DNA from: an uncultured bacterium
GTDB taxonomy: Bacteria > Patescibacteriota > Minisyncoccia > Phycocordibacterales > CAIZLB01
Length of the DNA stretch: 64,000 nt
Direction: 5' to 3'
Assembly (NCBI GenBank): GCA_903936565.1
Contig: CAIZVZ010000019.1
Span: 3,559-67,558, forward strand
Translations under genes and position numbers: made by a program
Part shown: positions 8,828 to 63,159 of the stretch, in pieces
How positions within the stretch are numbered: the first letter of the stretch is position 1
Layout of the letters: each line of letters opens with the position of its first letter
The notes under the pieces: generated by a model
What the model was told of the DNA's origin: nothing
What the model saw: the letters and a program-made list of their open reading frames with translations, nothing else
The model's database searches: none

Positions 8828-8858
8828 CAATTATAATTTTATGTTATAATAAAAAAAA

Positions 8859-10162: not shown

Positions 10163-10258
10163 AGCTGGATAGGGTAGAGAGACTTGTGCTGCCCGTTATG
10201 TTAATAATGGACTCTAAATTGGCAAAAATAAAACATGTGTGATATGCTTGTTCCATCA

Positions 10259-10331: not shown

Positions 10332-10363
10332 CAAATTGGTTCCATATTGCTATAGGTTATTCT

Positions 10364-11974: not shown

Positions 11975-12081
11975 ATTTGTTGGGTGTGTTTTATTTGTGC
12001 AAATTTAACTTATTTACTATTTTAGCACGATTAATCAAAACTATTTACTTTTACGTTATTTTTGATATAGTTTAAAAACAA

Positions 12082-12152
12082 GCGGGATTGGTTTAGTGGT
12101 AGAATGACTGCCTTCCAAGCAGTAGACAAGGGTTCGATTCCCTTATCCCGCA
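12082..12152 (+). tRNA. tRNA-Gly (anticodon TCC)
   Basis: Acceptor GCGGGAT/ATCCCGC, anticodon arm ACTGC-CTTCCAA-GCAGT, and T-arm AAGGGTTCGATTCCCTT. Confidence 0.8.
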
Positions 12153-12157
12153 CAAAT

Positions 12158-18947: not shown

Positions 18948-18948
18948 C

Positions 18949-19716: not shown

Positions 19717-19807
19717 ATTTAGTTATTACTCTCCTGTAAAGGAGGGTTTGATTTGTAATATATCAACAATATACACTACTCAAGATTATTAAACAAATAA
19801 AGAGAAA

Positions 19808-20944: not shown

Positions 20945-21022
20945 ATTTGTAGTAAATAATAAAAAACAAAACCAAGCCTATTTATAAAGCTCGGTTTTGT
21001 TTTTTGAGAAATTGTATCAAGA

Positions 21023-22165: not shown

Positions 22166-22290
22166 GATTTGTATATTAATTTACAAACACCATTATATGT
22201 TGCATTGTATATCTTGTCATAAAAATCGATTAAGTATTTTATATATTCCCAAATAACTAATCTATAAGCCATATTAAAGACTATTTACTG

Positions 22291-22309
22291 TTGTCGGTAT
22301 TTCTGACAC
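22291..22309 (+). promoter_or_regulatory. inverted repeat TTGTCG-N7-TGACAC 10 nt upstream of regulator paralog 3 start; candidate operator
   Basis: ttgtcg gtatttc tgacac, read directly from the sequence. It has the same 6-N7-6 architecture as the repeat at 30605-30623. Confidence 0.4.
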
Positions 22310-22319
22310 AATATGGAAT

Positions 22320-23090
22320 ATGGATGAAATATTACAAAAACTTGAGGAGTTTGGCATCAGTGAAAAGGCGGCAAAGATATATATTAGTCTGCTGCGTGAG
22401 CAAGATGTACCTGTATATAAGGTTGCTACGACCAGCAAAATACCTAGAACTACGGTTTATGCGATATTGGAGGAGTTGGAATCACAAGGTTTAGTGTCCA
22501 GTTGGAAGAAAAACAACGTAAAATACTACTCGGCAGAGAATCCTGAGAATCTTAAGAGAATATTGAAAAATAAGGAGATGGCACTTAATGAGATCTTTGG
22601 GGACTTAAGTGGAATGTTTAAGTTGGAGCGAGATAATCCTAAAACTAGGGTTTTGATTGGTGTGGAGGGAGTTAAAATAGCTTTTGAACACATGTTGGAG
22701 GTTATGGTCCAAGAGAGATTGAAGTTGGTTTATGCCTTTTTTGAATCTCAATTGACTGAATTATTCCCTAAATTCTTTTTTGAGTGGAGAGCGAGGAAAA
22801 ACAAGAAGACTGGAGCTACAACATTTCTTCTCGTTCCAAGTGGACTAGGTTTACACGAACACTACAAGAGCGATCCTTATAGAATAACCCGTGAGATGCC
22901 AAAAAAGTGGCCAGGTGGATCGTTTGCGATAATCGGAACCAATATATTTTTCTTCTCATTTAAGGAAAATGAGGTCTATTCTATAATTATTGAATCAAAA
23001 ATTATCTCCACCATGTTTGGGGGATTGTTTATGTATATTTGGAATACGCTGGATGATGATGTGGGGGTTAGAAATAAGGCTGAGTTTTAA
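22320..23090 (+). CDS. TrmB-family HTH regulator-like protein (paralog 3)
   Basis: MDEILQKLEEFGISEKAAKIYISLLREQDVPVYKVATTSKIPRTTVYAILEELESQGLVS, with C-terminal IIESKIISTMFGGLFMYIWN. Confidence 0.65.
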   Translation: MDEILQKLEEFGISEKAAKIYISLLREQDVPVYKVATTSKIPRTTVYAILEELESQGLVSSWKKNNVKYYSAENPENLKRILKNKEMALNEIFGDLSGMFKLERDNPKTRVLIGVEGVKIAFEHMLEVMVQERLKLVYAFFESQLTELFPKFFFEWRARKNKKTGATTFLLVPSGLGLHEHYKSDPYRITREMPKKWPGGSFAIIGTNIFFFSFKENEVYSIIIESKIISTMFGGLFMYIWNTLDDDVGVRNKAEF

Positions 23091-23135
23091 GTGTTCTTCT
23101 GACAATAATAATTATTAAGGTTGTGAAACGGTGTT

Positions 23136-23900
23136 TTATTTCCCCATATTCCACAAAACATCAAAAAACCTCCTATAACTCTCAACCATCTTCTGACTTT
23201 TAATTGAAAAGCGAATATGTGGTGTTCCAAATAGGTTAAACACCACTTCATTCGGAAAAATACTCATATTTACCTCATTTTCAAATCTACCATTCAATAA
23301 TCTTGATTTAAAGTTACTTCTCGGGTCATATTTTTCCTTAATTGCCTCTTCTTGCCCTAGTGACCCGACGTATTTCACGCTAATTTCTTTTTTGTTTCTC
23401 TGGTATTCATACTCCGTAAGAAGGTTTCCCATTGTTTCAGCCCACTGATCGCCAATCCCTCCAATAACAAGAAATTCAGATCCTTTTGGGGCGTCTTGCA
23501 GTGCCTTAAACTCAGATGCGATAAAAGACTCTGTTCCTTTAATAACATCAAAGTTCTGTTCATCTACATAATCAATCAAATTACTCAGGTTTTGCGATAG
23601 ATTTTCTGCAATAACCTTCTGCTTTTCAGCTTCAAGTACCAGAAGAGAGGGGTTTTGTGCTTCAAATTGCTTCCGACCGTTTTTAAGCGTGAAACGAACC
23701 ATGTTCTTTTCCTCTAGTTCTTTAAGTGAATTATAGACAAACTGGTTGTGTAACCCTGTCTCTTTAACTATCTTAGATGCTCCAACTCCACCGAGTCTGA
23801 GTAGGGAGTAGTAGACTCGTGCGGTTTTATCGCTAAAACCAAGCTTTTGGAAGTCATTTAAGAGTTTAGTGGGTATATTTTTATCAATATTGTTTGACAT
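23136..23900 (-). CDS. TrmB-family HTH regulator-like protein (paralog 4)
   Basis: LLNDFQKLGFSDKTARVYYSLLRLGGVGASKIVKETGLHNQFVYNSLKELEEKNMV, with C-terminal MVESYRRFFDVLWNMG. Confidence 0.65.
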   Translation of the reverse strand: MSNNIDKNIPTKLLNDFQKLGFSDKTARVYYSLLRLGGVGASKIVKETGLHNQFVYNSLKELEEKNMVRFTLKNGRKQFEAQNPSLLVLEAEKQKVIAENLSQNLSNLIDYVDEQNFDVIKGTESFIASEFKALQDAPKGSEFLVIGGIGDQWAETMGNLLTEYEYQRNKKEISVKYVGSLGQEEAIKEKYDPRSNFKSRLLNGRFENEVNMSIFPNEVVFNLFGTPHIRFSIKSQKMVESYRRFFDVLWNMGK

Positions 23901-24017
23901 AGTTGTAATTTAAGCCTTTATATAAATACTATTTCATATATATAACTTTGTCAATAAATCATTGTAATAATTGACAAAACTGGAATAATATATTGTATTA
24001 AAAGATAAACAATATAT

Positions 24018-25145
24018 ATGAAAAACAAAAAGAACATATTTATAGCTATAGTTGGGATTATCGTAATAGTCTCACTCGTTTGGATGGGATCTAGGGATAA
24101 TTCCGTAGTAAGTGAAAATTCAGGTAATTTTAAAGCCAACAATCAAGAAATTGTTATTGGAGCAGTACTATCAGAAACTGGAATGGCTTCAATTGATGGG
24201 AATAACATAAAGAGTGGAATTGAATTTGCAAGAGAAGAATTAGCAAAGAAGGGGATTAATGTTAAGGTTGTTTATGAAGACGATCAAACTAATCCAAAGA
24301 ATACAGTTACTGCGATTCAAAAGTTAGTTGATATTAACCACCCCCAAGCTTTGATTGGTCCTACATGGAGTTTCTTGGCTGAAGCTGCTGGTCCTGTGGT
24401 TGAGAGAAATAAGATTGTTTCAATGAGTCCAGCAAATACTAGTGAGTTTGTTTCCGTTAATTCAGGATATTTCTTCTTTGGTGCACCAAAGAATGAGGCT
24501 AAGGAGAAATATGCAACAGATTGGATTAAGGAAAGGGGATTGAAGAGAATTGCAATTGTTGTTGAGAAAAGTGGTTGGTCAGATAGTCACATTGTACCGT
24601 TTGAGAATGCGATAAAGAATGCTGGTGCAGAGCTTGTGTTCACTGAAAAATTCACCTATGCACAAAACTCAGTTGATGGTGGATCTGTAAAGGATATTAT
24701 TATGAAAGCAAAGAACGCTGGAGTTGATGGAGTGCTTTATACAGGTTTTGATCAATCAACTGCTGTTCTAATTTCAAAGAAGCAAGAATTGAAAGCAGAT
24801 TTTCAAATGCTCATGGCAACAGAAATTCCAGTGGGACTTCAAAAGAAGGGGGTTGTGAATATAAAGGATTCTGACAATATGTTTATCATTAGCCCTAAGG
24901 ATTCAGAATCTTTCAGTGATGCATACAAGGCAAGATACAATGAGTATCCAGGTGCGTATGCGGACAGAGGATATGATAGTTTGATGCTACTCGTTTCCGC
25001 TTTACAGAATAAGGGCGATATGGATCTTAAGGATTATCTAAAATCTGATTCAAGTATAAAGTATAATGGTTATGCTGGAGTGTATGACTTTGATCAGAAG
25101 GGAGATATTAAAGATAGTACTTGGAAGGTGGTGAAGATAAAATAG
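24018..25145 (+). CDS. membrane-anchored LivJ-like type-I solute-binding protein (paralog 4), orphan
   Basis: TM anchor, then IVIGAVLSETGMASIDGNNIKSGIEFAREELAKKGINVKVVYEDDQTNP. Confidence 0.7.
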   Translation: MKNKKNIFIAIVGIIVIVSLVWMGSRDNSVVSENSGNFKANNQEIVIGAVLSETGMASIDGNNIKSGIEFAREELAKKGINVKVVYEDDQTNPKNTVTAIQKLVDINHPQALIGPTWSFLAEAAGPVVERNKIVSMSPANTSEFVSVNSGYFFFGAPKNEAKEKYATDWIKERGLKRIAIVVEKSGWSDSHIVPFENAIKNAGAELVFTEKFTYAQNSVDGGSVKDIIMKAKNAGVDGVLYTGFDQSTAVLISKKQELKADFQMLMATEIPVGLQKKGVVNIKDSDNMFIISPKDSESFSDAYKARYNEYPGAYADRGYDSLMLLVSALQNKGDMDLKDYLKSDSSIKYNGYAGVYDFDQKGDIKDSTWKVVKIK

Positions 25146-25171
25146 AAAAATAGTAAACAAAAGTTTGTTAT

Positions 25172-25199
25172 ACAAAACCTATAGAAATATAGGTTTTGT
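25172..25199. terminator. bidirectional rho-independent terminator between SBP paralog 4 (+) and regulator paralog 5 (-)
   Basis: Perfect 12-bp stem ACAAAACCTATA-gaaa-TATAGGTTTTGT, flanked by A-runs on one side and T-runs on the other. Confidence 0.7.
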
Positions 25200-25208
25200 T
25201 TTTACATT

Positions 25209-25976
25209 TTATTTATCAAACTGCTTCGCACCAAGCCAGGATAATGCGTGAATTTTCTTAAACGCATCAGCAATTTCTTTACTTTCAATTATAATACCAA
25301 GCTTTTCTTTCCAAGACGCTATCATTATCTTGTTATTATAGATATTAATTTCAGGTGTGAAGTTGAACATTTCATTGGGAACCAGAAGGGTCTCTCGTAA
25401 TTCATTAGAGTCCTCCTTCTTTCTGAGTTTTCCCAACTCTGTATCTGGTACAATGGCGTGTGCCCATATCTTTTTGGCAGCTCTTCTTTTGTAATACTTT
25501 GGAAAATAGTTTGGCATTCCATCGTGCATTTCATCAACATTGGCAAATCCTAGTATTCCATCATCACTTGTGAGTGTGTCTTCATATACTTTCATCAAAC
25601 CATCTTCTCCTTCATAAAACTTCACAGAAGGTTTACTTCCTTTTGATTGAATTGCCAATAAGCGGGGGACAAGATCTTGAGCCTTATTCAGATTCTCTTC
25701 AAGTATGTTTTGCTGTCTTTTGACGTAATTGGCGATGGAGATTGGCGCTTCTGCCATAAATTCTTGCCTACTTCCTTTACCGAGCGCATTAACAATACCT
25801 TTATTGGCAAGAGAATTTAAAATGTCATATCCTGTTGTTCTGTTAATGCCTGCTTTCTTGGAAATATCAGCTACTTTTGCGTTACCTAATTCAAGTAGGG
25901 ATACGTAAACCTTGGCTTCTTTGTCGGATAGTCCTAATTTTTCTAATATAGTCTCAAGATTTGTGTACTGGCTCAT
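25209..25976 (-). CDS. TrmB-family HTH regulator-like protein (paralog 5)
   Basis: ILEKLGLSDKEAKVYVSLLELGNAKVADISKKAGINRTTGYDILNSLANKGIV, with C-terminal IIESKEIADAFKKIHALSWLG. Confidence 0.65.
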   Translation of the reverse strand: MSQYTNLETILEKLGLSDKEAKVYVSLLELGNAKVADISKKAGINRTTGYDILNSLANKGIVNALGKGSRQEFMAEAPISIANYVKRQQNILEENLNKAQDLVPRLLAIQSKGSKPSVKFYEGEDGLMKVYEDTLTSDDGILGFANVDEMHDGMPNYFPKYYKRRAAKKIWAHAIVPDTELGKLRKKEDSNELRETLLVPNEMFNFTPEINIYNNKIMIASWKEKLGIIIESKEIADAFKKIHALSWLGAKQFDK

Positions 25977-26152
25977 ATTACCCTTATTATAATAAAACTA
26001 GTACTTGTGTCAATCGTGTTCCACAGTAATGTATTTATTATGTGTTTACATATAATGCTTGTATTGCAAATAACTGTAAACTTGGCGCAATGTTTTGACA
26101 GTATTTGATCACAATATTATAATTTGTCCAATTATAAATAATAATCAAATAT

Positions 26153-27259
26153 ATGAAAAAGAAAGTCATTTGGACAGTAGTTGTAGGTATGGTAGTTATA
26201 GCGGTTATATTTGCTGTAGGTAACAATGACAAAAAAGACACGAATACGATTAAAATTGGTAGTGTTAGCGCCCTCACGGGAGACGGTGCTGTTTATGGGG
26301 AGGTTTCTAAGAGGGGGCTCGATATTGCCGTTGAGGAAATAAACGCAGTTGGGGGTGTAAATGGTAAGAAAATAGAGATGGTTTATGAGGATGGAAAGTG
26401 TGATGGCAAGTCAGCTCTAAATGGTGCGCAAAAACTACACGGCCAAGGAATTGATATTCTTTTGGGTGTGACTTGTAGTGGAGAGGTACTCTCTATTGCT
26501 CCGTTTGCCGAACAAAACAAGATGGTGTTAATCAGTCCATCTGGATCAAATCCTGATATAACAAAGGCGGGGGACTATATATTTAGAAACAACCCATCAG
26601 ACGCGAGCAGGTCTGTCGTTTTTGTCCAAAAGATTCTGGACTTGGGATATAAAAATGTGGCGATAATATCTGAACAAACTGATTTTTCACAAGGCCTTAG
26701 AAAATCAATAATTGAAGAAGGAAACAAAAAGGGGCTGAAGATTGTTTTTGATGAGGTGTTTGATAAAGACTCTAAGGATTTTAGGACAACTTTGTCTAAG
26801 TTAAAAAACACGCAGGCAGATTCATTGATACTTCTACCACAGACTGATGTAACAATGGTCCCTCTGTACTCTCAAGCTTATCAGCTGGGAATCAGATTAC
26901 CAACTTTTGTTGCTGGGGAACAGATGACTGCAAAAACAGAACAATCTTTGGGAAGTATAGTGAAGGGTGTTTACGTTGTAGAAGCTCCTGGTTTGGATTC
27001 TAATAACGAGATTGCAAATAAATTGCTGGCTAAGTATAAGGCTAAATATGGTCAGCTTACTTTGGATTTTTATATGGCAGCATCATATGACAATGCGTAT
27101 ATAATCAAGAGGGCAATTGAAATTGCTGGGACTGAAGACCCTACTAGGGTAAAAGAAGCCCTTTATAAAATCAAAGATTTCAAGGGTGCGATAGGAACTT
27201 ATGGTTTTGATTCTAATGGAGATATTCAGGGGGTGGGGTTTGTGATGAATCAAAGGTAG
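26153..27259 (+). CDS. membrane-anchored LivJ-like type-I solute-binding protein (paralog 5), orphan
   Basis: TM anchor, then IKIGSVSALTGDGAVYGEVSKRGLDIAVEEINAVGGVNGKKIEMVYEDGKCDGK. A consensus promoter TTGACA-17-TATAAT lies upstream at about 26093-26121. Confidence 0.7.
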   Translation: MKKKVIWTVVVGMVVIAVIFAVGNNDKKDTNTIKIGSVSALTGDGAVYGEVSKRGLDIAVEEINAVGGVNGKKIEMVYEDGKCDGKSALNGAQKLHGQGIDILLGVTCSGEVLSIAPFAEQNKMVLISPSGSNPDITKAGDYIFRNNPSDASRSVVFVQKILDLGYKNVAIISEQTDFSQGLRKSIIEEGNKKGLKIVFDEVFDKDSKDFRTTLSKLKNTQADSLILLPQTDVTMVPLYSQAYQLGIRLPTFVAGEQMTAKTEQSLGSIVKGVYVVEAPGLDSNNEIANKLLAKYKAKYGQLTLDFYMAASYDNAYIIKRAIEIAGTEDPTRVKEALYKIKDFKGAIGTYGFDSNGDIQGVGFVMNQR

Positions 27260-27311
27260 GATTCTGGTGGGAAGAATATTTGGGAATAAAACGTCTAGTA
27301 AAATAGGCGTT

Positions 27312-28073
27312 TTATTCTTGATTAGCAACCTTTTCTGCAACATTATTCCAAATCATGTTAAAGAATGATAAAAAGATACTACTAAATGGCTCTGATTCTA
27401 TGATTAGTGAATAAATCTTTTGATTATCCATAAAAAATAGGGCGGTCTTGTTGCCGTAGATATACATTGAACTTTTAATATCTTGCGGACCTTTGACCTC
27501 TCTAGTCTCTCTGAATGAGTTACTTTCATAGCCTTCATCAATGTCCCCTGGCACAAATTCAGGTCTGATTATTCTAATATGTATATTTGACTGCTCTCTT
27601 GTTTTAATCCATTCCCGGCTGACTTTTGGAAAATACTTAATAAAATCTGGTCTAAGGTATGCACTTATGGTTTTTACTTTTGTAAGCTTGGAATGATCTA
27701 AAATATCTTGAAGTACTGCTTTAGATCCTTCTTTTCCAGTGTATAACTTTGCGGAGGGAACAGCTCTGCCATCTTCGGAAAGTAGTCTGAGCTCTGGAAC
27801 CAGCTCCTTCATTTTCTCCAGCTTTTCTTCTTGAATTTTTAATAATCGGTTAGGACTCTCTGCTCCATAGTATTTAACTCCATTTTTCCTCCACATGCTT
27901 ACCAAACCCATTCTCTGCATTGATAGTAGGGTGTCATATATGGTTGTTTTAGCAATTCCAGTATCTTGAACGATCTGGGTAATTGAACAGTCTTTGAGCT
28001 TAAGGAGACTTAAATAGACCTGAGATTCCTTATCGGAAAAGCCAATTTGTGATAGTTGTTGAATATAATTCAT
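27312..28073 (-). CDS. TrmB-family HTH regulator-like protein (paralog 6)
   Basis: MNYIQQLSQIGFSDKESQVYLSLLKLKDCSITQIVQDTGIAKTTIYDTLLSMQRMGLVS, with C-terminal IIESEPFSSIFLSFFNMIWNN. Confidence 0.65.
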   Translation of the reverse strand: MNYIQQLSQIGFSDKESQVYLSLLKLKDCSITQIVQDTGIAKTTIYDTLLSMQRMGLVSMWRKNGVKYYGAESPNRLLKIQEEKLEKMKELVPELRLLSEDGRAVPSAKLYTGKEGSKAVLQDILDHSKLTKVKTISAYLRPDFIKYFPKVSREWIKTREQSNIHIRIIRPEFVPGDIDEGYESNSFRETREVKGPQDIKSSMYIYGNKTALFFMDNQKIYSLIIESEPFSSIFLSFFNMIWNNVAEKVANQE

Positions 28074-28221
28074 AAATGGTCGGAAAAAGCGACCAATATA
28101 TTATACATTATGAACCTTATAATACAAGTCAATTTCTGTTTCATATAAAATAGCGATTATAAAATGCGATTTAATTGACAAAGTCTAATATGATGTTGCT
28201 GTAATAATTTAAATCAAAAAT

Positions 28222-29358
28222 ATGAAAAAATACAAAATTATATGGATATCTATAGTCGTAGTACTTGCGATGGCGGTTGTGATTGCGGTTAGTGGTGGTG
28301 TGGATAGTTCCAATAATTCAGATACTATCAAGATTGGCTTTATTGGTGCTCTTTCGGGGGCTGACCCTTCATACGGAGAGGCCATGAAAGGTGGGGTAGA
28401 AATTGCTGTCGAGGAGATAAATTCTCAAGGTGGAATAGGTGGAAAAAAAGTTGAGGTAATATATGAGGATGGAAAATGTATTGATTCAAAAAGTGCCATA
28501 TCAGCTTTTCAGAAGCTGAATGATATAGATCGTGTTAAAGCCATAATTGGCGGTGGTTGTTCAAATGAAGTGGCTTCTATCACCAAAATGGTTGATAGTA
28601 ACGAGGTATTCTTGATATCCTCTGGCGCATCTAGTCCCGACATTTCTGGTTCAAGTAAATACATCTTTAGAAATTCTATAAACGATACAGAATCTAGTAA
28701 ACAATTGGCGATTCAAATCATTAAAGATGGTTACAACGATATTGCGATTATTACCGATAATTCAGATTATGCCTCAGGGTTTAGAAAATCATTTATAAAT
28801 GAGTTTGATAAGGTTGGTGGTGTCGTGAGTGTTGATACGATTGTTCAAGCCAATCAATCTGATTATAGATCTGATATTGCTAAACTAAAAGCCGTTAATC
28901 CAAAGGTAATATTTATTAATCCGGCTGTTCCAAAAACTGCGGGTATTATAATAAAACAAATAAAGGAAGCTGGTTTGAATTCTAAAATATATTTAACTTT
29001 CATGGCTACACCTGCATTTTTCAATATTGCAGGGGATAGTGCTGATGGAGCAACTGTGATTGATTTACCAAAGGTTACTGGTGATCTTTCTCGTAATATT
29101 CTTACAAAGTTTGAAACTATATACGGTCACAAAACTGTTTATGAATATAATACAGTTGCCGCCTATGATGCGGTGATGGTAATAAAAGAGGCGATAGTAA
29201 AGGTTGGATATGATTCTAACAAGATATCTAATTATTTATCTAAACATAATTTCTCTGGTGGGCTGGGTAATTTTAGTTTCAATGATCAGGGTGATGTTTC
29301 TGGAATGAAATACACACTTCAAATTATTAAGGGGCATGAGTTGGTGGAGATAAAATAG
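28222..29358 (+). CDS. membrane-anchored LivJ-like type-I solute-binding protein (paralog 6), orphan
   Basis: TM anchor, then IKIGFIGALSGADPSYGEAMKGGVEIAVEEINSQGGIGGKKVEVIYEDGKCIDSK. Confidence 0.7.
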   Translation: MKKYKIIWISIVVVLAMAVVIAVSGGVDSSNNSDTIKIGFIGALSGADPSYGEAMKGGVEIAVEEINSQGGIGGKKVEVIYEDGKCIDSKSAISAFQKLNDIDRVKAIIGGGCSNEVASITKMVDSNEVFLISSGASSPDISGSSKYIFRNSINDTESSKQLAIQIIKDGYNDIAIITDNSDYASGFRKSFINEFDKVGGVVSVDTIVQANQSDYRSDIAKLKAVNPKVIFINPAVPKTAGIIIKQIKEAGLNSKIYLTFMATPAFFNIAGDSADGATVIDLPKVTGDLSRNILTKFETIYGHKTVYEYNTVAAYDAVMVIKEAIVKVGYDSNKISNYLSKHNFSGGLGNFSFNDQGDVSGMKYTLQIIKGHELVEIK

Positions 29359-29370
29359 CTTATAAATAAA

Positions 29371-29396
29371 GGGCCCCGCAGATATCTGCGGGGCCC
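29371..29396. terminator. bidirectional rho-independent terminator between convergent SBP paralogs 6 and 7
   Basis: Perfect GC-rich palindrome GGGCCCCGCAGATATCTGCGGGGCCC, flanked by AAA on the left and TTT on the right. Confidence 0.8.
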
Positions 29397-29416
29397 TTTA
29401 TCGTAGGTTCTCGTAA

Positions 29417-30499
29417 TTATTTTATTAACATCATCACTCCATTCTCAATCTTTGCTGGAAAAAGCGGAAAATTTATTTCTCCTTTTTCATTAACATTTAA
29501 TTTCCCCATCAATCCATCAAAGTCTTTTACGTTCTTAAGATTATTGAATACTTCTTTTGAATTATTTGCGCCCTTGAGCGATTGACTATATATCCCTGTA
29601 AGATCATAACCTATTGCTGAATATGCACTTGGTTTGGTTTTATATTTATTTTCGTAAGCAGCAGAGAAGTCCATCACTTTCTGATTACCAGATAAATAAT
29701 ATTCTGGAGTTGTAAGATAGACTCCTTCGGCTAAGTTACCTGCTTTTTCTTGAACAGTTTGTGATGATAATATCCAGTTTGTCATTTTGACTTTATCGAA
29801 ATTCATTTCTTTCATCTGCTTAAGAATGCTAACAAGTTGATTATCTAATCCTATGATGTACACACCTTCAGCTTCAGAGTTTTTAATTTTAGTAATTTGA
29901 GTTTTGAAATCTTGATCCTTTTTATCAAACTCCTCAATATCTACAATAGAAGCGCCTGATTTTTCTGCAACATCTTTAAACACTTCTCCATAAGTTTTTC
30001 CATACTCGTCATTACTTACAAGAAAGGAAATCTTCTTAAGATTAAGTGATTTGGTGGCGAAGTTTGCCATGATTGGAGCTTCTTGCTCAGCTGAAGTAAA
30101 ATATCTTATAGACAAATCTCCTTGTGCTTTTCTTGCAGAAACTAATGTTTGCATAGAGAAGATTCCATCCTTTTCTGCTATCGGAACGACAGCATTAGCA
30201 ACTGAGCTTAAGGAAAGTATAACGGAACCAAGGTTGTTCTGTGATTTTAACTTCTGATATGCTGAAATTGCTGAATTGGTATTTGATTGGCTGTCTTCAT
30301 AAACTAAATTGATCTTTGTATCTTGATTAGCTAAATCCATTCCTTTCTTCATTTCCTCACCAAAAAACTGAGCGGGGCCAGTAAGGGGAAGTACGGCACC
30401 TATTACAAGAGGTTTGCTGTTACTTGAATTAGTGAATAATATTGTGCCTATTGTGATAACAAGAATAACTGCGACTATTGATATAATTTTGTTTTTCAT
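29417..30499 (-). CDS. membrane-anchored LivJ-like type-I solute-binding protein (paralog 7), orphan
   Basis: From the internal Met MKNKIISIVAVILVITIG (TM) then LVIGAVLPLTGPAQFFGEEMKKGMDLANQ. The ORF-track start at 30553 adds 18 unlikely residues. Confidence 0.65.
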   Translation of the reverse strand: MKNKIISIVAVILVITIGTILFTNSSNSKPLVIGAVLPLTGPAQFFGEEMKKGMDLANQDTKINLVYEDSQSNTNSAISAYQKLKSQNNLGSVILSLSSVANAVVPIAEKDGIFSMQTLVSARKAQGDLSIRYFTSAEQEAPIMANFATKSLNLKKISFLVSNDEYGKTYGEVFKDVAEKSGASIVDIEEFDKKDQDFKTQITKIKNSEAEGVYIIGLDNQLVSILKQMKEMNFDKVKMTNWILSSQTVQEKAGNLAEGVYLTTPEYYLSGNQKVMDFSAAYENKYKTKPSAYSAIGYDLTGIYSQSLKGANNSKEVFNNLKNVKDFDGLMGKLNVNEKGEINFPLFPAKIENGVMMLIK

Positions 30500-30604
30500 A
30501 TTTGTGTCAATATAATAAAACGATATGATAGCTCTGTCAAAGATGTATGACATAATCTAGGAATATACCGCTATAAACAAAGCCAGAACGGAAAATATGA
30601 AATG

Positions 30605-30623
30605 TTGTCACGGATTTTGACAA
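30605..30623 (+). promoter_or_regulatory. inverted repeat TTGTCA-N7-TGACAA upstream of, or overlapping the annotated start of, regulator paralog 7; overlaps a TTGACA -35-like hexamer
   Basis: ttgtca cggattt tgacaa. TTGACA at 30619-30624 is followed 17 nt later by TATTAT, and the family-consensus start MDTLEYKNKLISLGL is at 30656. Confidence 0.45.
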
Positions 30624-30655
30624 AATACATACCAAGAGATATTATTGTAATTATA

Positions 30656-31402
30656 ATGGATACACTAGAATACAAAAATAAGCTGATTTCTCTTGGTTTA
30701 ACAGATAGGCAGGCTGTTGTTTATATTAAAGCTTTGGAATTCGGATCATTTTCAGTTGCGAGTTTGGCCCATGCTACGGGTATTAAAAGGCCAACTTGCT
30801 ATCTTGTTTTGGATGAATTATCTCAAAAGGGCTTAGTTTCTGTTATTCCTAATGCTAAGAAGACCAAATATAAAGCGGAGTCACCGGAGATTCTGATCAA
30901 ACAGATTGAAACGCAGATGGTTACCGCTAAAAGAGTTTCAAATGATTTGCTCAAGCTCTATAATCCGAAGGCAGAAGGACCTACTTTGCTGTATTTCTCT
31001 GGACAGAAGGCAATCAGAGGTATATTTGATGATGTCTTGAAGGTAAAAAGTAAGGAGTATTTGTATATTGGATCAGGAAGAGATGTTATTGATATGGTTG
31101 GAAAGGAATATATTGACCATTGGCTAACGGAAAGAGTTGAAAAGGAGATAATAGCAAGAAGTATTAGAATGAAGAGTACAGAGGTTATGGAGGATATATA
31201 TCAAACAAATATTATGCGTGATTTGCGTCTTGCTCCTGATTTTATCCATATTGCTGAGACTATATTTATTTATGACAACAAAGTCTCCATCATATCTACT
31301 TCTAATGAGAACTTTGGTTTTGTTGTAGAAAACAAAGAGTTTGCAAATACCATGCGTGGCTTGTTTGAGGCACTTTGGGCAGTTTCAGAAAATAGATCAT
31401 AA
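30656..31402 (+). CDS. TrmB-family HTH regulator-like protein (paralog 7)
   Basis: MDTLEYKNKLISLGLTDRQAVVYIKALEFGSFSVASLAHATGIKRPTCYLVLDELSQKGLVS, with C-terminal VVENKEFANTMRGLFEALWAV. The ORF-track start at 30602 would place the inverted repeat inside the coding sequence. The internal Met fits the paralog N-termini better. Confidence 0.6.
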   Translation: MDTLEYKNKLISLGLTDRQAVVYIKALEFGSFSVASLAHATGIKRPTCYLVLDELSQKGLVSVIPNAKKTKYKAESPEILIKQIETQMVTAKRVSNDLLKLYNPKAEGPTLLYFSGQKAIRGIFDDVLKVKSKEYLYIGSGRDVIDMVGKEYIDHWLTERVEKEIIARSIRMKSTEVMEDIYQTNIMRDLRLAPDFIHIAETIFIYDNKVSIISTSNENFGFVVENKEFANTMRGLFEALWAVSENRS

Positions 31403-45677: not shown

Positions 45678-45733
45678 TTTAATGGTCACAAATTTTGACC
45701 ATAAATGCGGATACGGTAAAATTGGCATATAAA

Positions 45734-45760
45734 CTAGAGGTCACAAGTTGTGACCTCTAG
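45734..45760. terminator. bidirectional terminator between pgk (+) and HIT gene (-): 13-bp perfect stem
   Basis: CTAGAGGTCACAA-g-TTGTGACCTCTAG, followed by TTTATATTTT. Confidence 0.65.
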
Positions 45761-45787
45761 TTTATATTTTGACCAACTATATATTTT

Positions 45788-53375: not shown

Positions 53376-53514
53376 TCTTTGGAATGATTTTAGGTATCTA
53401 ATGTATAATTCAGTCCCATCGGAGCTTATAGAAGGTTACGACCCTTGCATTAAGCACCTATATATAGTAGTCTATGACAACTAGTGTATTTTACATACGC
53501 TCGTAAATTTAAGT

Positions 53515-54643: not shown

Positions 54644-56797
54644 ATGCAACGTGATTATCCATTAGAGCGAATTAGAAACTTTGGTATCATCGCTCACATT
54701 GACGCTGGTAAGACAACAACATCAGAACGTGTTCTTTACTACACAGGAATGAGCCATAAAATTGGTGAAGTTCATGAAGGAGAGGCAGTAACAGACTGGA
54801 TGGAACAAGAAAAAGAGCGTGGTATTACAATTACCGCAGCTGCTATTACTTGTTTCTGGAACCCAACATACATGGGAGCAGATAAGTCTATTATGCATCG
54901 TTTCAACATTATCGACACTCCTGGTCACGTGGACTTTACAGTTGAGGTTGAAAGATCTCTAAAGGTTCTTGATGGAGGAGTTGTGGTATTTGATGGAGTT
55001 GCCGGAGTTGAAGCTCAATCAGAAACAGTTTGGAGACAAGCTGATAAGTATCACGTTCCACGTATTTGTTTTATTAACAAGCTAGACAGAATGGGAGCAT
55101 CATTTGAAAGATCATATCAATCAATCTTGGACAGACTAAACAAGAATGCAATCAGAATGCAGCTTCCAATCGGAGAAGAAGAGAACTTGGCGGGAGTTGT
55201 TGATCTTCTAAAGATGAAGGCTTACAAGTTTGAAGGAGACATGGGAAGTACTGTTACAGAATATGAAGTCCCAGCTGAGATGCTTGATGAAGCTAAGATG
55301 AGAAGACAAGAACTAGTTGAGAAGTGTGTAGAGTTCGATGAAGAATTGATGAACAGATACCTAGAAGAAGGTGAGTCTGCGGTATTCACAATCGATGAAC
55401 TTAAAGCATCTCTAAGAAAGGGAGTTATCTCAAATAAGGTTTTCCCAGTTTTCACAGGTTCAGCTCTTAAGAACAAAGGAGTTCAACTAGTATTGGATGC
55501 CGTTATTGATTACCTACCATGTCCACTAGACGTTCCTCCAATAAAAGGACTTGATCCAGAGACAAATGAAGAAATTGAAAGACACGCATCAGATGAAGAA
55601 CCTTTTGCAGCACTTGCATTCAAATTGCAAACTGACCCATTCGTAGGACAACTTACATTCTTCCGTGTATATTCCGGAACAATTGAAGCTGGTTCATATA
55701 TTTACAATGCTACAACTGGTAACAAGGAGAGACTTGGACGTATTGTTAGACTTCAAGCTAATAAGAGAGAAGATGTTAAGAAAGTTTTTGCTGGAGAAAT
55801 TGCAGCAGCCGTAGGTCTTAAGGAAGCAAAGACATCTCACACTTTCTGTGATGAATCTCATCCGATTCTGCTTGATCCTATTAAGTTCGCAGAGCCTGTT
55901 GTGTCTCTAAGAATCGAGCCAAAGACAAAGGCAGATCAAGAGAAGATGGGTGTTGCTCTTAAGAAACTAGGAGATGAAGATCCAACATTTAGAATTTCTT
56001 CAAACTCAGAGACAGGAGATACTGTTATCTCAGGAATGGGTGAACTTCACCTTGAAATCATGGTTGATAGAATGAAGAGAGAGTTCAATGTTGAGGCTAA
56101 CGTGGGTGCTCCTCAAGTTGCATACAGAGAGACAATTCTTGGAAGTGCAGAGGCAGAACACAAATATGTTAAGCAATCTGGAGGTAAGGGGCAATATGGT
56201 CACGTTAAGATTACAATTAAGCACCTAGAGCCACTAGAGGAAGGAGCTAAGATTCCTAAAAACGTGCACAGAACTGCTGACTTTGAGTTTATTGACTCAA
56301 TTAAAGGAGGAGTTATCCCAGCAGAATTTATTCCTGCAGTTGAGAAGGGGGTTAAAGAGGCAATGGAAAGAGGTATTGTTGCTGGATTCCCACTAACAAA
56401 CGTATCTTGTGAGCTAACATTTGGATCATATCACGATGTTGACTCATCAGAAATCGCTTACAAGATTGCAGCTTCTCAAGCTTTCCAAGAGGGAGCAAAG
56501 AGAGCGAGACCTGTTATTCTTGAGCCTATAATGAAGGTTGAAGCCCTAACACCAGAGCAATTCATGGGTGACGTTACAGGATCACTTTCATCAAAGAGAG
56601 GACAAATTGAAGGAATGGACGATAGACTAGGCGGAATCAAGGTTATCAGAGCGATGGTTCCACTATCAGAAATGTTTGGTTACACAACAGATATACGATC
56701 AATGACACAAGGAAGAGGCTCAGTAACAATGGAATTCGATCACTATGATACAGTTCCAGCAAACGTGGAGAAGACAATCGTTGAGTCAAGGAAATAA
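54644..56797 (+). CDS. fusA: elongation factor G
   Basis: [16 protein letters not shown]-domain, DTPGHVDF, and a full five-domain length of 717 aa. Confidence 0.95.
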
Positions 56798-56932
56798 AAA
56801 AAGATAGCAACAGAGCCGTATTAAGGACAATTTCCCAAAAACGTCTAATATATTCTGACAAAAGCACCCCGAGAGGGGTGTTTTTGTGTTGGTTTGAGTC
56901 TAGATCCGCAGTAGAAAAGATTATTTGACTTT

Positions 56933-57334
56933 ATGTTTTTTGGTGCCATTATGGTTATAGCGTTCTTTCTTAAAACCATTCACCAACAACCCCCGATAAA
57001 CATGCAAACTGGATTACGAGACCATGACGATATGAAAAGACGACTAGAGGAACTTGAACTTGCTGACTATCTGAATCTTCTACTTTTGCAACGCGCTGGA
57101 GAGGCGATGGACGGAATTGGCATAGTTGACCTACTGCGGGGTGCTTTTGCTGAGTATATCGTCGAAACGGAACTTCCTCAATCTAAAATGGCGGAGCTGA
57201 ATGCAAAAATGACAAGCTACGTTGACGCTGTGATGGAAGATCTTGATTTGGCAGATTCAGCCTGTCTTTATTGGATTGAATTGAATCGATCTACCGGATT
57301 TGGTCAAATCCCTGAGGATATTAGACCATTTTAA
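56933..57334 (+). CDS. hypothetical acidic protein inside GC-richer insertion between fusA and tuf
   Basis: 133-aa ORF with no recognizable motif. Local GC is visibly higher than the flanks. Coding status is uncertain. Confidence 0.3.
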   Translation: MFFGAIMVIAFFLKTIHQQPPINMQTGLRDHDDMKRRLEELELADYLNLLLLQRAGEAMDGIGIVDLLRGAFAEYIVETELPQSKMAELNAKMTSYVDAVMEDLDLADSACLYWIELNRSTGFGQIPEDIRPF

Positions 57335-57371
57335 GGCTCAATCAGCGTCTTTTACCCCACTAATTATACCG

Positions 57372-57403
57372 CCGGACCCGACAGGGTCCGGCGCTCCTCT
57401 TTT
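57372..57403 (+). terminator. hairpin CCGGACCC-gaca-GGGTCCGG followed by CTCCTCTTTTC
   Basis: 8-bp perfect GC-rich stem immediately after the 133-aa ORF. Confidence 0.5.
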
Positions 57404-57418
57404 CAAGATCCATATCCC

Positions 57419-57572
57419 GAAGGTGGGGGTTTGTTTGTATATTAAGGACCTTACCCAACCCCTTAAAGAGACTTGCGAACTGCAGTGAGCAGAGGAGATT
57501 TCTTGCTAGAAATCTCCGTGCTCTTTAAGGGGTTGGGTAGGGGACGTTTTGTATTGACAAACCCCCACCTTC
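57419..57572. repeat. ~155-nt nested imperfect palindrome (three stacked stem segments)
   Basis: Outer arms GAAGGTGGGGGTTTGT / ACAAACCCCCACCTTC are a perfect match. Middle arms CCTTACCCAACCCCTTAAAGAG / CTCTTTAAGGGGTTGGGTAGGGG match closely. Inner arms GGAGATTTCT-tgct-AGAAATCTCC form the innermost stem. Confidence 0.6.
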
Positions 57573-57819
57573 TGATATTATCCAGTATGACGCCAAATGG
57601 CGGTTTTTTATCCCAACTCTTCTTTTTGATTTAAGGCAAGTATTAAAGAATCAAACATAATAAAGCTATTTACAAGAAGAAGCACTGGGGATGAAATTTA
57701 AGAAAATTTATTAATTTTAATTTTTATTAATTAGTAAATATTGGGCCTGCGGAGATATCCGCGCCTTATGGAGATATCCATATTTAAAGCCCTGTATTTA
57801 TATAATTATCAACAAATAT

Positions 57820-59013
57820 ATGGCAGTAGAAGCTTTTGATCGTTCAAAACCTCACTTAAACGTAGGTACAATTGGTCACGTTGATCACGGAAAGACTACC
57901 TTAACAGCTGCAATCCTTAATGTTCTTCACAGAGCAGGTATGCAAGCAACAATCAAGGATGTTAGTGAAATTGACAAGGCCCCAGAAGAGAAGGCTCGTG
58001 GTATTACAATTTCATTGTCACACAGTGAATACACAACAAATGTAAGACACTATGCTCACATTGATGCTCCAGGTCACGCCGACTACATCAAGAACATGAT
58101 TACTGGTGCCGCTCAAATGGACGGTGCTATCTTGGTAGTTGCTGCAACAGATGGACCAATGCCACAAACACGTGAGCACGTTCTTCTTGCAAAGCAAGTT
58201 GGTGTTCCAAAGATTATCGTATTCATGAACAAGTGTGACATGGTAGATGATGCAGACATGCTTGATCTAGTTGAGGCAGAAATTAGAGAGTTGCTAGTAA
58301 AGAACGGATTTGACGAAAATGCTCCAATTATCAGAGGTTCAGCGCTTAAGGCACTTGAAGCTCCAGATAATACAGATCAATGGTCAATGAAAGTTCTAGA
58401 ACTTGCAGAGGCTCTTGACACATATCTTCCACAACCAGTGAGAGAGACTGACAAACCATTCCTTATGCCTATTGAGGACATCTTCTCAATTGAAGGAAGA
58501 GGAACAGTAGTTACAGGAAAGATTGAAAAAGGTATGATTAAGATTGGTGAAGAAATAGAAATCGTTGGAATCAAAGATACTCAAAAGACAGTTGTTACAG
58601 GAATCGAAATGTTCAACAAGCAACTAACAGAGGGTATGGCTGGAGACAACGCTGGTATTCTTCTAAGATCTGTTAAGAAGGATGATCTTACAAGAGGTCA
58701 AGTTCTTTCAAAGCCAGGTTCAGTTAAGCCACACACAGATTTTGAAGCAGAAGTCTATATCCTTAAGAAGGAAGAAGGCGGTCGACACACTCCATTCTTC
58801 TCAGGTTACAAACCACAGTTCTACGTACGTACAACTGACGTTACAGGAGAGGTTACATTAAAAGAAGGTGTAGACATGGTTATGCCAGGTGACACAGTTA
58901 CATTCAAAGTTAAATTGGTAGCCCCAATTGCTCTTGAAGACAATACAAGATTCGCTATTCGCGAGGGAGGTAGAACTGTTGGAGCTGGAGTTGTAACTAA
59001 GATCGTAGCCTAA
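57820..59013 (+). CDS. tuf: elongation factor Tu
   Basis: [25 protein letters not shown] and a typical 397-aa length. Confidence 0.95.
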
Positions 59014-62409: not shown

Positions 62410-63159
62410 TTACACCTCTCCTGCCGATTGCCAAATTATTTCAAACTGTTCTTCTTGTAATTGTATTATTCCAGGATTTTCTATGACGATAGTAAGAATA
62501 GGCGAGACCATTTGAGTAATAATGACTTTATCTTTTAATATAACTAGGTTACTAATAAGATCCACATCCTTTGGTAAATATCTAATGTCCCAATTGATTC
62601 TCTTTCCATATTCTTTGTATTTCTCGGCCTCAGGTGTTCTTTGGAGTAGGGTTCGGAGAGACAGGTGTAGGTGACTTCTTTTCTCCACCCAATCCTCAAA
62701 GAAATCTTTATCAATTTTCATAAACTTTTCAATATCAGATATAATCAGGTATTTATCTCCATATCTCAAATCCTTTAACATATCAGTGTAGACCTTTTTA
62801 AAACCGGATACCCCTTCGTAATATTTAATAAAATTGAGACCAGTGTGTATTTGGTATTTACTTGATAGCTCGGGGATAATTTTTGATAGGTTATCTTTCT
62901 TTAGCTCGTAAGTCTTCATTAGATTCTCTGGATTGGAGGCAACAAAGAGCTTTTTTAGACCATTAATTTCAATGCTGATTAGCCCCTTAATTTTAAGTGC
63001 CTCTATTACGGAGTAGGCGGTGGTCCTTATGACCCCCGCTTCTTTAGCGATATTTATGGCTGTTGCGGGCCCGAGGCTTAAATTAGCAAGGTATATTTTA
63101 GCTTCATTTTCTGTCAGCCCAATATCTTTGATTATCTCTACGGTTCTGTTGGTTAGCAT
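62410..63159 (-). CDS. TrmB-family HTH regulator-like protein (paralog 8)
   Basis: IIKDIGLTENEAKIYLANLSLGPATAINIAKEAGVIRTTAYSVIEALKIKGLIS, with C-terminal VIENPGIIQLQEEQFEIIWQSA. Confidence 0.65.
   Translation of the reverse strand: MLTNRTVEIIKDIGLTENEAKIYLANLSLGPATAINIAKEAGVIRTTAYSVIEALKIKGLISIEINGLKKLFVASNPENLMKTYELKKDNLSKIIPELSSKYQIHTGLNFIKYYEGVSGFKKVYTDMLKDLRYGDKYLIISDIEKFMKIDKDFFEDWVEKRSHLHLSLRTLLQRTPEAEKYKEYGKRINWDIRYLPKDVDLISNLVILKDKVIITQMVSPILTIVIENPGIIQLQEEQFEIIWQSAGEV

Follow-up and report, generated by a model that had tools for sequence, protein, structure and literature searches.

The 1022-bp spacer between fusA and tuf in the stretch of DNA analysed here (64 kb, hereafter the window) has a mosaic structure and marks a hotspot for the exchange of accessory and defence genes among related strains, the two genes around it being highly conserved. 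The window carries the smallest allele of this hotspot, an autonomous gene cassette followed by one copy of a palindromic element that we call E. Sequence comparison indicates that E represents an uncatalogued family of Y-shaped hairpins.

Results

Structure of the fusA–tuf spacer

With the end of fusA at 56797 and the start of tuf at 57820, the spacer has the length given in a preliminary description of this DNA, which regarded it as a single foreign insertion of ~1 kb. Accessory DNA at a strain-variable site is indeed present, but the spacer is composed of several parts, namely an ORF cassette, the separate hairpin element E, and the conserved tuf promoter and leader. Its left portion comprises:

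56858–56887, + strand: intrinsic terminator of fusA, with an A-tract, a C-rich arm, a G-rich arm and a T-tract (terminator scan)
56896–57406, + strand: strain-specific accessory segment that holds the ORF cassette (alignment with relatives)

The fusA terminator is the last sequence common with relatives, and homology to L035, L008 and L033 is lost at ~56896, just past its T-run. The segment that follows is partly common to L008, whereas L035, L033 and L007 have unrelated sequence at this position. Conservation in relatives, which would be expected of an ordinary intergenic spacer, holds for the tuf promoter and leader only (98% identical in the closest strain). The description of the spacer as GC-richer is correct for the central variable part (56896–57575, 680 bp), whose GC content of 0.446 lies at the 99.9th percentile, but the entire spacer (0.403) reaches just the 87th percentile among equal-size windows, the mean of the 64-kb window being 0.370. 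The flanking genes, judged earlier to be ~35% GC, were computed at 0.41, the palindrome at 0.474 and the tuf leader at 0.291.

Among strains whose EF-G is 94–98% identical, the genes that lie between fusA and tuf are unrelated and include AbiLi/Fic defence genes, a restriction-modification (RM) system of the MmeI type, Bro-N and a gene of 1203 aa. PADLOC identified in the L035 island an AbiLi-like ATPase (E-value 8.9e-52), a SoFic/PDC-S04 Fic protein and a DEDDh exonuclease effector, and the RM system, found in another strain at the same site, is of the MmeI/Type ISP kind. The fusA–tuf gap is an accessory/defence-gene hotspot in this Parcubacteria-type lineage. As in known defence-island hotspots, one position flanked by core genes carries unrelated cargo in close strains (AbiLi-like, Fic, RM and orphan genes). 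It differs from them in its location within the classical str operon, which it interrupts in this Parcubacteria lineage, and in having no integrase or tRNA anchor; one allele, that of L033, lacks E and carries the fusA 3' end duplicated perfectly over 201 bp. No att-like direct repeats were found at the island borders. The fusA–tuf junction can be used for mining new defence and anti-defence genes.

An autonomous cassette encoding a 110-aa protein

The accessory segment of the window contains one gene with its own predicted signals:

56925–56952, + strand: promoter-like site TTGACT-16-(TG)CATTAT (promoter scan)
57002–57334, + strand: gene for an acidic, all-helical protein of 110 aa (homologue start positions)
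57370–57403, + strand: intrinsic terminator, a 10-bp stem with 9 GC pairs at 57370–57393 followed by CTCCTCTTTT

An acidic ORF of 133 aa without a recognizable domain had been noted at 56933–57334. The ORF is present and acidic (pI 4.4), but its start had been placed 23 codons too early: four homologues (P0002–P0004 and the L008 copy) all begin at its Met24, and therefore the real gene is 57002–57334, encoding 110 aa with a pI of 4.26. Profile searches against Pfam, PHROG, PADLOC and PDB were all empty, in accordance with the absence of a recognizable domain, and the AF2 model is helical and of low confidence (pLDDT 58.7). The protein family comprises 16 representative clusters only, among 1.8 billion proteins. 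Upstream of their homologues, L005 and L008 retain the block 56924–56978, and an equivalent of the terminator, which corresponds to the strong hairpin plus T-run reported at 57372–57403, follows the homologues in L003, L004 and L008. The few homologues of the ORF sit in unrelated contexts. We also considered a coupling between the ORF and E and rejected it, since the homologues in L003 and L004 have no E and the E of L035 has another neighbour. The orphan protein is among the candidates for new defence or anti-defence genes.

E is a branched hairpin with covarying homologues on other contigs

The cassette is followed, after its own terminator, by E:

57407–57583, + strand: whole element E including the outer arms (inverted repeat and fold; the outermost pairing is weaker and the limits are approximate)
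57447–57544, + strand: E core of 98 nt, 26 bp of the basal stem P1 plus the three-way-junction tip (covariance model R1)
57473–57492, + strand: P2 hairpin UUGCGA-AC-UGCA-GU-GAGCAG (alignments A4 and A6)
57494–57517, + strand: P3 hairpin of 10 bp with a 4-nt loop (perfect inverted repeat I10)

The nested palindrome was located exactly where it had been described, at 57419–57572. Its arms (57419–57470 and 57521–57572) are 52 nt each and 81% complementary, with a perfect match between them over the outer 16-mer GAAGGTGGGGGTTTGT. No other inverted repeat in the 64 kb is as large, and folding of the palindrome, which the preliminary description proposed as a check, gave −108.8 kcal/mol (z = −12.3 against shuffles). 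Model R1 matched the core with 95 bits (E-value 1.5e-23), its sole real match in the window, and RNAalifold predicts the same fold for the core. P2 consists of GC pairs, a tandem G.A, two covarying pairs and the UGCA loop, and its sequence is nearly invariant family-wide; the pairs numbered 33/40 and 34/39 show an A-U/C-G to G-C/U-A switch in about half of the copies. P3 shows compensatory changes in 7–8 of its 10 pairs, and its loop is flipped in the window (TGCT vs AGCA in nearly all other copies). Parvovirus terminal hairpins (AAV ITR) are T- or Y-shaped, a long stem capped by two small hairpins. E resembles them, as an architectural analogy only, in its long stem with two small hairpins at a near-perfect three-way junction and in the flipping of one small loop. 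It differs from them in that it is chromosomal, internal and multi-locus, with no Rep/HUH gene and no linear replicon end.

The search for further copies suggested earlier had a divided outcome. No second palindrome was detected in the window, even by the covariance model without filters, but at least 22 full copies occur on other contigs, which are Parcubacteria-like metagenome contigs (model R1, E-value ≤ 1e-9). A metagenome search with the tip motif placed it on 19 low-GC contigs; three of its 22 matches (L014, L022 and L031; GC 0.52) had no hairpin and were discarded as chance. Across copies the tip, a 52-nt branched junction that is four-way in some of them, is nearly invariant, and the stems, 20 to over 50 bp long, are copy-specific and nearly pure Watson-Crick. 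Standard pairs make up 95.9% of cells, double-sided (compensatory) changes were found in 33 of the 40 pairs, and none of 500 shuffles matched this. These results refute the idea of an ordinary intergenic spacer with a chance palindrome, whose probability we consider negligible: the lack of a second copy in the window is the only point in its favour, and the fold z-score, the GC content of the central part and the 22 homologous copies with their compensatory changes all contradict it.

Searches of existing collections gave no known relative of E. An Rfam 15 scan of the window at gathering thresholds returned four tRNAs and nothing else, and permissive Rfam scans of the spacer and 11 other E loci yielded chance matches only (e.g. 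plant miRNA hairpins). The outer arms, the tip motif and a 20-mer of the variable stem do not occur in the viral contig collection, and a phage origin or guide-like stems were rejected on this basis. Among 185,579 species genomes, the outer arms matched only L006, an unrelated high-GC actinobacterial repeat taken as chance. A literature search on structured RNAs, palindromic repeats and MITEs of CPR/Patescibacteria and on a fusA–tuf hotspot found nothing relevant. The genomes of CPR/Parcubacteria are tiny and uncultured and their non-coding elements are almost uncharted. E is a well-defined, easily modelled family absent from Rfam, and its 98-nt core now makes a genome-wide search possible.

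Strand preference of the fold and a possible small RNA

The preliminary description raised the possibility of a structured sRNA locus. An independently transcribed small structured RNA, with a functional three-way junction and the long stem doubling as terminator, is in our opinion very unlikely. The tip is invariant, with covarying P2 and P3 and a tandem G.A that is sensible on the + strand only, the few wobble pairs of P2 and P3 lie on the + strand, the + strand of E in the window folds 13 kcal/mol better than the − strand, and the majority of copies are co-oriented with a neighbouring gene, all of which would suit an RNA. However, a sigma-70-like site was found upstream of E in just 1 of the 22 copies (downstream in 7), and an independent sRNA gene is unlikely because of this; E does not show the combination of own upstream promoter and downstream terminator. 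Furthermore, only ~15 nt separate the T-run of the preceding terminator from the left arm of E in the window, the − strand folds better in L008, L013 and L016, at least six copies are antisense to all surroundings or abut convergent genes, and no Rfam family matches. Assigning a strand by the wobble pairs of the long stem was also tried and abandoned: among 769 stem positions, 23 are G.U on the + strand and 18 are A.C (G.U on the − strand), showing no bias, and 47 are other mismatches.

E lies at gene 3' ends and beside core promoters

Eight copies of E, oriented either way, begin 2–25 nt past a stop codon or the 3' end of a tRNA (fmt twice, recR, RNase R, a nucleotidyltransferase, ftsZ and tRNA-Arg twice), and one copy occupies the entire gap between the convergent fmt and hpf genes. 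Long perfect palindromes also lie between convergent genes in the genome of the window. At other sites E ends at or on the −35 element of a core promoter, namely that of tuf (window, L008 and L035), rpsL (L011 and L035), rpmF (L013 and L018) or typA-like genes (L016, L019 and L020), and the side of E opposite the core promoter is occupied by variable accessory genes. In the window, E is located exactly where the variable island meets the conserved promoter:

57554–57581, + strand: tuf promoter TTGACA-16-TGaTATTAT, 11 of 12 consensus positions, with an extended −10 (promoter scan)

This promoter is kept in L008, L033 and L035, with or without E. Its −35 element and spacer fall within the right arm of E, and in L008 the −10 element is also within the palindrome.

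The composition of the stems is polar. Over the 22 copies, C outnumbers G on the left arm at 4–14 nt from the tip (75 vs 30) and A outnumbers T at 15–34 nt (199 vs 96), both mirrored on the right arm. This A-tract/C-rich arm/G-rich arm/T-tract layout is the same as in the fusA and ORF terminators. We therefore looked on E as an elaborated bidirectional Rho-independent terminator or insulator, a reading that the sequence features favour and that we hold tentatively, at somewhat less than an even chance. E is like bidirectional intrinsic terminators in being an intergenic hairpin with this layout, including a GC-rich stem and a T-tract with a mirrored A-tract, in its positions after stop codons and tRNA 3' ends, between convergent genes and before promoters, and in pairing equally well on either strand; that it rarely has its own promoter is also in line with such a role. 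It is possible that the stem would halt transcription arriving from the accessory genes before the tuf–S10 promoter, whose start lies in the right arm of E. The conserved tip may then serve as a recognition or folding module for a factor, and the arms would stay matched because one is copied from the other at the DNA level, through gene conversion or template switching, because the stem has to fold on two strands, or for both reasons.

Several features fit poorly with termination. In the window, L011, L019+ and L035, the upstream gene already has an ordinary terminator ahead of E, so that E is not needed there as the primary stop. Intrinsic terminators have a loop of 3–8 nt and a stem of 5–14 bp, in contrast to the conserved junction and the far longer stems of E; a branched tip that is nearly invariant across genomes is not needed for termination, and the stem lengths far exceed its needs. 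The terminator role of E is thus a predicted one. If E is a terminator or insulator, it would be an example of how a streamlined genome protects its essential translation operons against neighbouring accessory and defence genes that are exchanged rapidly.

Turnover of E and the arms that mirror the promoter

To compare E among close strains, we aligned the loci of the relatives. At the tuf site E is present in the window, L008 and L035 and absent from L033; at the rpsL site it is present in L011 and L035 and missing from the window, L008 and L033. When the window is compared with L035, the E core at the tuf site differs fully (three-way vs four-way tip), with 59% identity in the E interior, although the leader is 98%, tuf 95.6% and fusA 93.8% identical; this turnover is faster than expected for a terminator stem under neutral drift, a further point against the terminator or insulator reading. 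The left outer arm of E is an inverted copy of the spacer and −10 region of the tuf promoter. The anchors GATCCATATCCCGAAGGTGG and CCACCTTCTGATATTATCC are common to the window and L035, and the E-less L033 keeps TTGACAAACCCCCACCTTCTGATATTATCC without the left copy. The left outer arms track the spacer allele of the downstream promoter (GGGGGTT/AACCCCC in the window vs GGCGT/ACGCC in L035).

Such behaviour would be expected if E were primarily selfish, a small mobile or convertible palindromic element, loosely MITE- or REP-like, which we rate as possible but rather unlikely. Its tip would be recognised in trans by an enzyme encoded elsewhere, E would land in, or replace the centre of, palindromic terminators or promoter-upstream regions, and the arms would then be re-templated from the local flank via fold-back synthesis. 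Besides the empty/filled polymorphism, the core replacement between flanks of 94–98% identity and the mirrored promoter, this reading can draw on the dispersal of the family, on five contigs/strains that carry two E copies each, always mutually inverted and with different arms, and on the lower-stem motifs GTAAGGACAGG...CCTGTCCCTRC, which are common to copies at different loci in different genomes. In L021, a rearrangement beside an rve integrase gene breaks exactly within an E arm. On the other hand, the arms differ among all copies, even between two on one contig, and hence there are no shared terminal inverted repeats such as define a MITE; the tip alone is conserved. Conservation fades gradually away from the tip, the element ends are not sharply defined, and no direct repeats or target-site duplication were seen at them. 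No transposase or recombinase was found consistently near the copies, the 64-kb window has a single copy, and viral contigs have none. E thus does not behave like a classic MITE, the kind of element considered earlier.

Dispersed intergenic families of ~100–200 nt that form hairpins include the Neisseria Correia elements and the enterobacterial REP/BIME and ERIC sequences. They lie beside promoters and terminators, are strain-polymorphic, and can terminate transcription or carry promoter parts. E is likewise dispersed, intergenic, hairpin-forming and strain-polymorphic and lies beside promoters and terminators. However, the arms (terminal inverted repeats) of those families are conserved and their copies near-identical, whereas E has unique arms and a conserved tip, and E has no TA or other target duplication and no RAYT or transposase partner. 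The ~35-nt conserved unit and the RAYT of REP/BIME are lacking, copies are sparse (1 in 64 kb) in contrast to the high copy number of REP/BIME, and no Y1/HUH gene lies near E.

A more specific proposal, which we consider unlikely, is that Parcubacteria and the wider CPR harbour a new kind of genetic element that propagates as a hairpin, its active part being the tip, which a dedicated nucleic-acid-binding protein would read. We give the same low weight to its suggested mode of spread, in which the tip would invade or convert the dyad of palindromic terminators near core promoters or tRNA genes, and the flank would be copied into the opposite arm by fold-back or template-switch synthesis. Propagation of this kind would lead to arms that are unique yet perfect and to a promoter mirrored in the left arm. 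It would also account for the replacement of whole cores between strains that are otherwise nearly identical and for the inverted pairs of copies on either side of small accessory genes. If the tip is indeed a mobility or protein-recognition module, the family would have a new mode of spread, with only the hairpin tip conserved.

A possible role of E as folded DNA

It is also conceivable, but improbable in our judgement, that E functions in a folded DNA form, as a single strand or a cruciform, and serves either as a structure-specific recombination site in island exchange at the borders of core genes, comparable to attC in integrons, or as a supercoiling-sensitive switch of the core promoter, with the −35 element and spacer of the adjacent promoter sequestered. 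The covariation is nearly all from Watson-Crick to Watson-Crick, with no G.U excess on either strand, and the position of E on the border of the island and conserved promoter, with promoter elements belonging to the palindrome, would suit either function. Tandem G.A pairs in a 5'-YGAR-3' context, as in P2, are stable in DNA too. Cumulative GC skew climbs across the locus, and the folding + strand would therefore be the lagging-strand template, transiently single-stranded. Nevertheless, a centre of 52 nt that is not palindromic makes cruciform extrusion from a duplex strongly unfavourable, E has no linked integrase or recombinase, islands swap at the hotspot without E too (L033, with its fusA duplication instead), and many copies are at gene 3' ends, where there is no promoter to control.

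Integron attC sites share with E a conserved structure with free stem sequence and a single-stranded fold as plausible substrate, and E in the window follows an ORF at a site of varying gene cargo. In attC, however, the base (R''/R' boxes and extrahelical bases) is conserved and the tip varies, the opposite of E, and E has neither an integrase nor a co-oriented cassette array, its paired copies being always inverted. The window motif ACCCAAC...GTTGGGT fits RYYYAAC/GTTRRRY; the attC assignment was rejected, as these columns show no conservation in the alignments of 13 and 22 copies.

The conserved tuf leader

The remainder of the spacer contains the following features:

57584–57819, + strand: AT-rich tuf leader, conserved core sequence and not inserted DNA (alignment with relatives)
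57590–57609, + strand: small hairpin CGCC-AAAT-GGCG followed by T6, located at the predicted 5' end of the tuf transcript (fold)
57751–57779, + strand: direct repeat GGAGATATCC in two copies spaced 19 nt apart, within the tuf leader

From the right anchor (57565) to the tuf ATG, 250 of 255 positions are identical with L035, and the leader region is 80–86% identical to L033 and L008. An Rfam scan of the leader gave no match. The small hairpin is kept, with loop changes, in L008, L033 and L035. The 10-nt direct repeat noted earlier at ~57750–57780 was confirmed, its copies starting at 57751 and 57770. L035 has the two copies, L033 a single diverged one and L008 none, and the repeat is a lineage-specific small duplication.

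Layout of the fusA-tuf spacer

The 1022-bp spacer between fusA and tuf had been described as a GC-rich insertion with an ORF, a hairpin with a T-run, a palindrome and a direct repeat, all of which are found in the sequence. Its features, with E denoting the palindromic element and its family, are:

54644-56797, fusA
56925-56952, conserved promoter-like site of the ORF (TTGACT-16-TG-CATTAT)
57002-57334, ORF
57370-57403, terminator of the ORF cassette (10-bp GC hairpin with T-run)
57407-57583, + strand, E, whole extent
57419-57470 and 57521-57572, left and right arms of E
57473-57492, hairpin P2 at the tip of E
57494-57517, hairpin P3 at the tip of E, loop flipped to TGCT
57554-57581, tuf promoter, inside the right arm of E
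57590-57609, tuf 5' hairpin
57820-59013, tuf

The GC enrichment holds for the centre of the spacer only: 56896-57575 has a GC content of 0.446 (99.9th percentile of same-size windows; window mean 0.370), whereas the tuf-proximal 247 bp have 0.291, and the flanking genes, judged to be at ~35%, compute to about 0.41. The direct repeat (GGAGATATCC twice) is a small duplication within the AT-rich tuf leader. This leader, the tuf promoter and the 5' hairpin with its U-run, which make up the remaining spacer, are ordinary conserved core sequence. The 5' hairpin (4-bp GC stem plus U6) sits exactly where the tuf mRNA is predicted to begin, has equivalents with changed loops in the related contigs L008, L033 and L035, and has no Rfam match; it could act to stabilise the 5' end or as an attenuator.

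The ORF, taken to be 56933-57334, is present but begins further downstream: in each of four homologues (63-67% identity) the start is Met24, so the gene encodes 110 aa (pI 4.3). Homologues share both the promoter-like site and the terminator, and they occur in unrelated neighbourhoods. The protein family is very small, with 16 representative clusters in a set of 1.8 billion proteins; Pfam, PHROG, PADLOC and PDB searches gave no match, and the structure model, though helical, cannot be relied on. The ORF is a small mobile orphan gene. A motif, CCAAGTCCAC, followed after a few nt by TTGAC, recurs just 5' of several promoters in homologue-bearing contigs (L003 4900-4960 and 5380-5410; L004 1235-1260 and 1725-1750) and is perhaps an upstream promoter element specific to the lineage.

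Strain-variable DNA beside core operons

The nearest named EF-G relatives, at about 82-86% identity, come from Parcubacteria/Paceibacterota MAGs, so the source of the window is a CPR/Patescibacteria bacterium. Strains with EF-G 94-98% identical carry entirely different DNA between fusA and tuf. The P0006 strain has an MmeI/Type ISP RM gene and DUF3644, and L008 has a Bro-N protein plus others. L035 has a 7-kb island (4252-10562; also in L034, L036 and L007) encoding an AbiLi-like AAA_21 ATPase (PADLOC E-value 8.9e-52) and its 190-aa partner. The other products of the island are a SoFic/PDC-S04 Fic protein, a DEDDh exonuclease effector, a PDC-S62-like protein and three proteins without match. 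In L033, a 1203-aa gene, whose product matched nothing in Pfam or PADLOC, lies in a 3.8-kb insert between perfect 201-bp direct repeats of the fusA 3' end (11954-12154 and 15953-16153); the arrangement suggests a recent insertion, Campbell-type or homology-facilitated, but could also be an artefact of assembly. Between strains, homology stops just 3' of the fusA terminator, at about 56896, and restarts at the left outer arm of E or at the tuf -35. The gap is hence a hotspot for accessory and defence islands, and its smallest allele is the one in the window.

At rpsL, the promoter (…CCCTTGCATTAAGCACCTATATATAGTAGTC…) is near-identical across strains (window 53376-53514; L011 4238-4560; L035 415-686), and conservation begins exactly at -35, the upstream neighbour gene and the presence of E varying by strain. 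Since everything 5' of the -35 differs, this is a second variable site beside a core operon. At this site L011 and L035 carry E, which the window, L008 and L033 lack; at tuf, L033 has none.

E is a family with a conserved tip

The 52-nt arms of the palindrome are 81% complementary, with perfect outer 16-mers, and form the largest inverted repeat in the 64-kb window; the folding energy is -108.8 kcal/mol (z = -12.3, relative to dinucleotide shuffles). Even a search without filters returned no further copy in the window. In L008 (EF-G 95%), an ORF homologue precedes a hairpin in the corresponding position, with arms different in sequence yet complementary and a nearly identical tip. The tip motif GACTTGCGANNTGCANNGAGCAG occurs at 22 loci among JGI metagenome contigs, 19 of them low-GC contigs sharing the E architecture. 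In a gap-free 98-nt alignment of 13 copies, 98.1% of pairs are standard and 31 of 40 pairs show two-sided changes; in slid controls only 40-46% pair, RNAalifold arrives at the same fold, none of 500 shuffles reaches the observed values, and a chance palindrome is extremely unlikely. R1, a covariance model built from E (98-nt core, 57447-57544), recovered 22 full copies at an E-value <= 1e-9, several without the exact motif, plus partial copies; across all 22, 95.9% of cells pair, with double changes in 33/40 pairs. Rfam 15 holds no matching family, and the viral contigs searched contain no copy.

E folds as a basal stem P1, P2, a single unpaired A, P3 and a bulged G or U. P2 (UUGCGA-RY-UGCA-RY-GAGCAG) has a tandem G.A and two pairs alternating between A-U/C-G and G-C/U-A; P3 has 10 bp and an AGCA loop, and an extra hairpin in some copies gives a four-way tip. 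The tip is asymmetric, and the tandem G.A and rare wobbles make sense on the + strand only.

The stem behaves like a DNA palindrome, its covariation being nearly all Watson-Crick to Watson-Crick: 769 positions of full stems include 23 G.U cells (+ strand), 18 A.C cells, equivalent to G.U on the - strand, and 47 further mismatches. Close to the tip, C predominates in the left arm (75 C versus 30 G), and farther out A does (199 A versus 96 T), mirrored by G, then T, in the right arm; this layout is that of the genome's ordinary terminators. Perfect palindromes of 36-44 nt with a loop of 0 or 1 nt also lie between convergent ORFs (6985-7028, 45727-45767 and 29366-29401), match R1 weakly and through the stem only, and are presumably the organism's plain bidirectional terminators.

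Position, turnover and predicted function of E

Eight copies, in either orientation, begin 2-25 nt past a stop codon or tRNA 3' end (fmt twice, recR, RNase R, a nucleotidyltransferase, ftsZ and tRNA-Arg twice). In other copies the end falls on the -35 of a tuf, rpsL, rpmF or typA-like promoter or immediately in front of it, with variable accessory genes on the opposite side. A sigma-70-like site lies upstream of 1 of 22 copies and downstream of 7; E lacks its own promoter, and an independent sRNA is very unlikely. The tuf promoter TTGACAAACCCCCACCTTCTGATATTATCC is kept in the E-less strain L033, and the left arm in the window, GAAGGTGGGGGTTTGT, is its inverted copy. In L008 the inverted copy extends through the -10, and in L035, where the spacer of the promoter reads ...ACGCC..., the left side has the mirror GGCGT. 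The outer arms are made of flanking sequence.

The best-supported reading takes E for an elaborate intrinsic terminator, acting in both directions, or insulator, a predicted function that composition, 3'-end and convergent-gene positions, equal pairing on the two strands and the lack of its own promoter all fit. In the window, E would protect the tuf-S10 promoter from transcription reading through from the accessory cassette. This reading leaves three things unaccounted for: a near-invariant tip of 52 nt, an excessively long stem with an ordinary terminator just upstream of E in several loci, and a core that is replaced very rapidly. These points leave a palindromic element that is mobile or convertible as a serious rival, possible if not probable; the two readings are not mutually exclusive. 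Ranked after it, a single-stranded-DNA recombination or promoter-control site is unlikely. Between the window and L035, identity is 98% in the leader, 95.6% in tuf and 93.8% in fusA but only 59% in the interior of E, whose tip shifts from three-way to four-way.

Five contigs or strains have two copies each, always inverted and with unrelated arms. Inverted pairs lie at L019 5598-6467, L029 1-912, L015 1153-2071 and L026 998-1258. Three of these pairs enclose one small gene (137 aa, a nucleotidyltransferase and 160 aa), and the fourth stands back-to-back, about 60 nt apart; the enclosed gene beside typA has 137, 119 or 113 aa in related contigs. L021 (about 4640) and L013 (about 1087), two contigs of the same strain, agree along 1347 nt at 99.8% identity and diverge exactly within the right arm of E, 16 nt from the tip, where L021 adjoins an rve-family integrase gene; the break is either a hairpin-targeting insertion or rearrangement, or an assembly join.

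In place and shape, E resembles intrinsic terminators and the Correia, REP/BIME and ERIC intergenic palindromic repeats, but its conservation pattern is inverted, the tip being conserved and the arms free. Literature searches found nothing relevant to E. We rate it as a putative repeat family of terminator-like palindromes in which the conserved three-way junction is a novel module; a new mechanism of propagation is rather unlikely. Compared with MITE, REP and attC, E falls short of the definitions, for MITEs in that its arms differ between copies.

Elsewhere in the window, at 18147-31402 (also 62410-63159), genes for a TrmB-family regulator (~255 aa) and for a Peripla_BP_6 solute-binding protein (~375 aa) alternate in about seven successive pairs. 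For so small a genome, the set of paralogues is large, and the pair type also occurs 5' of rpsL in the related strains L033 and L035.
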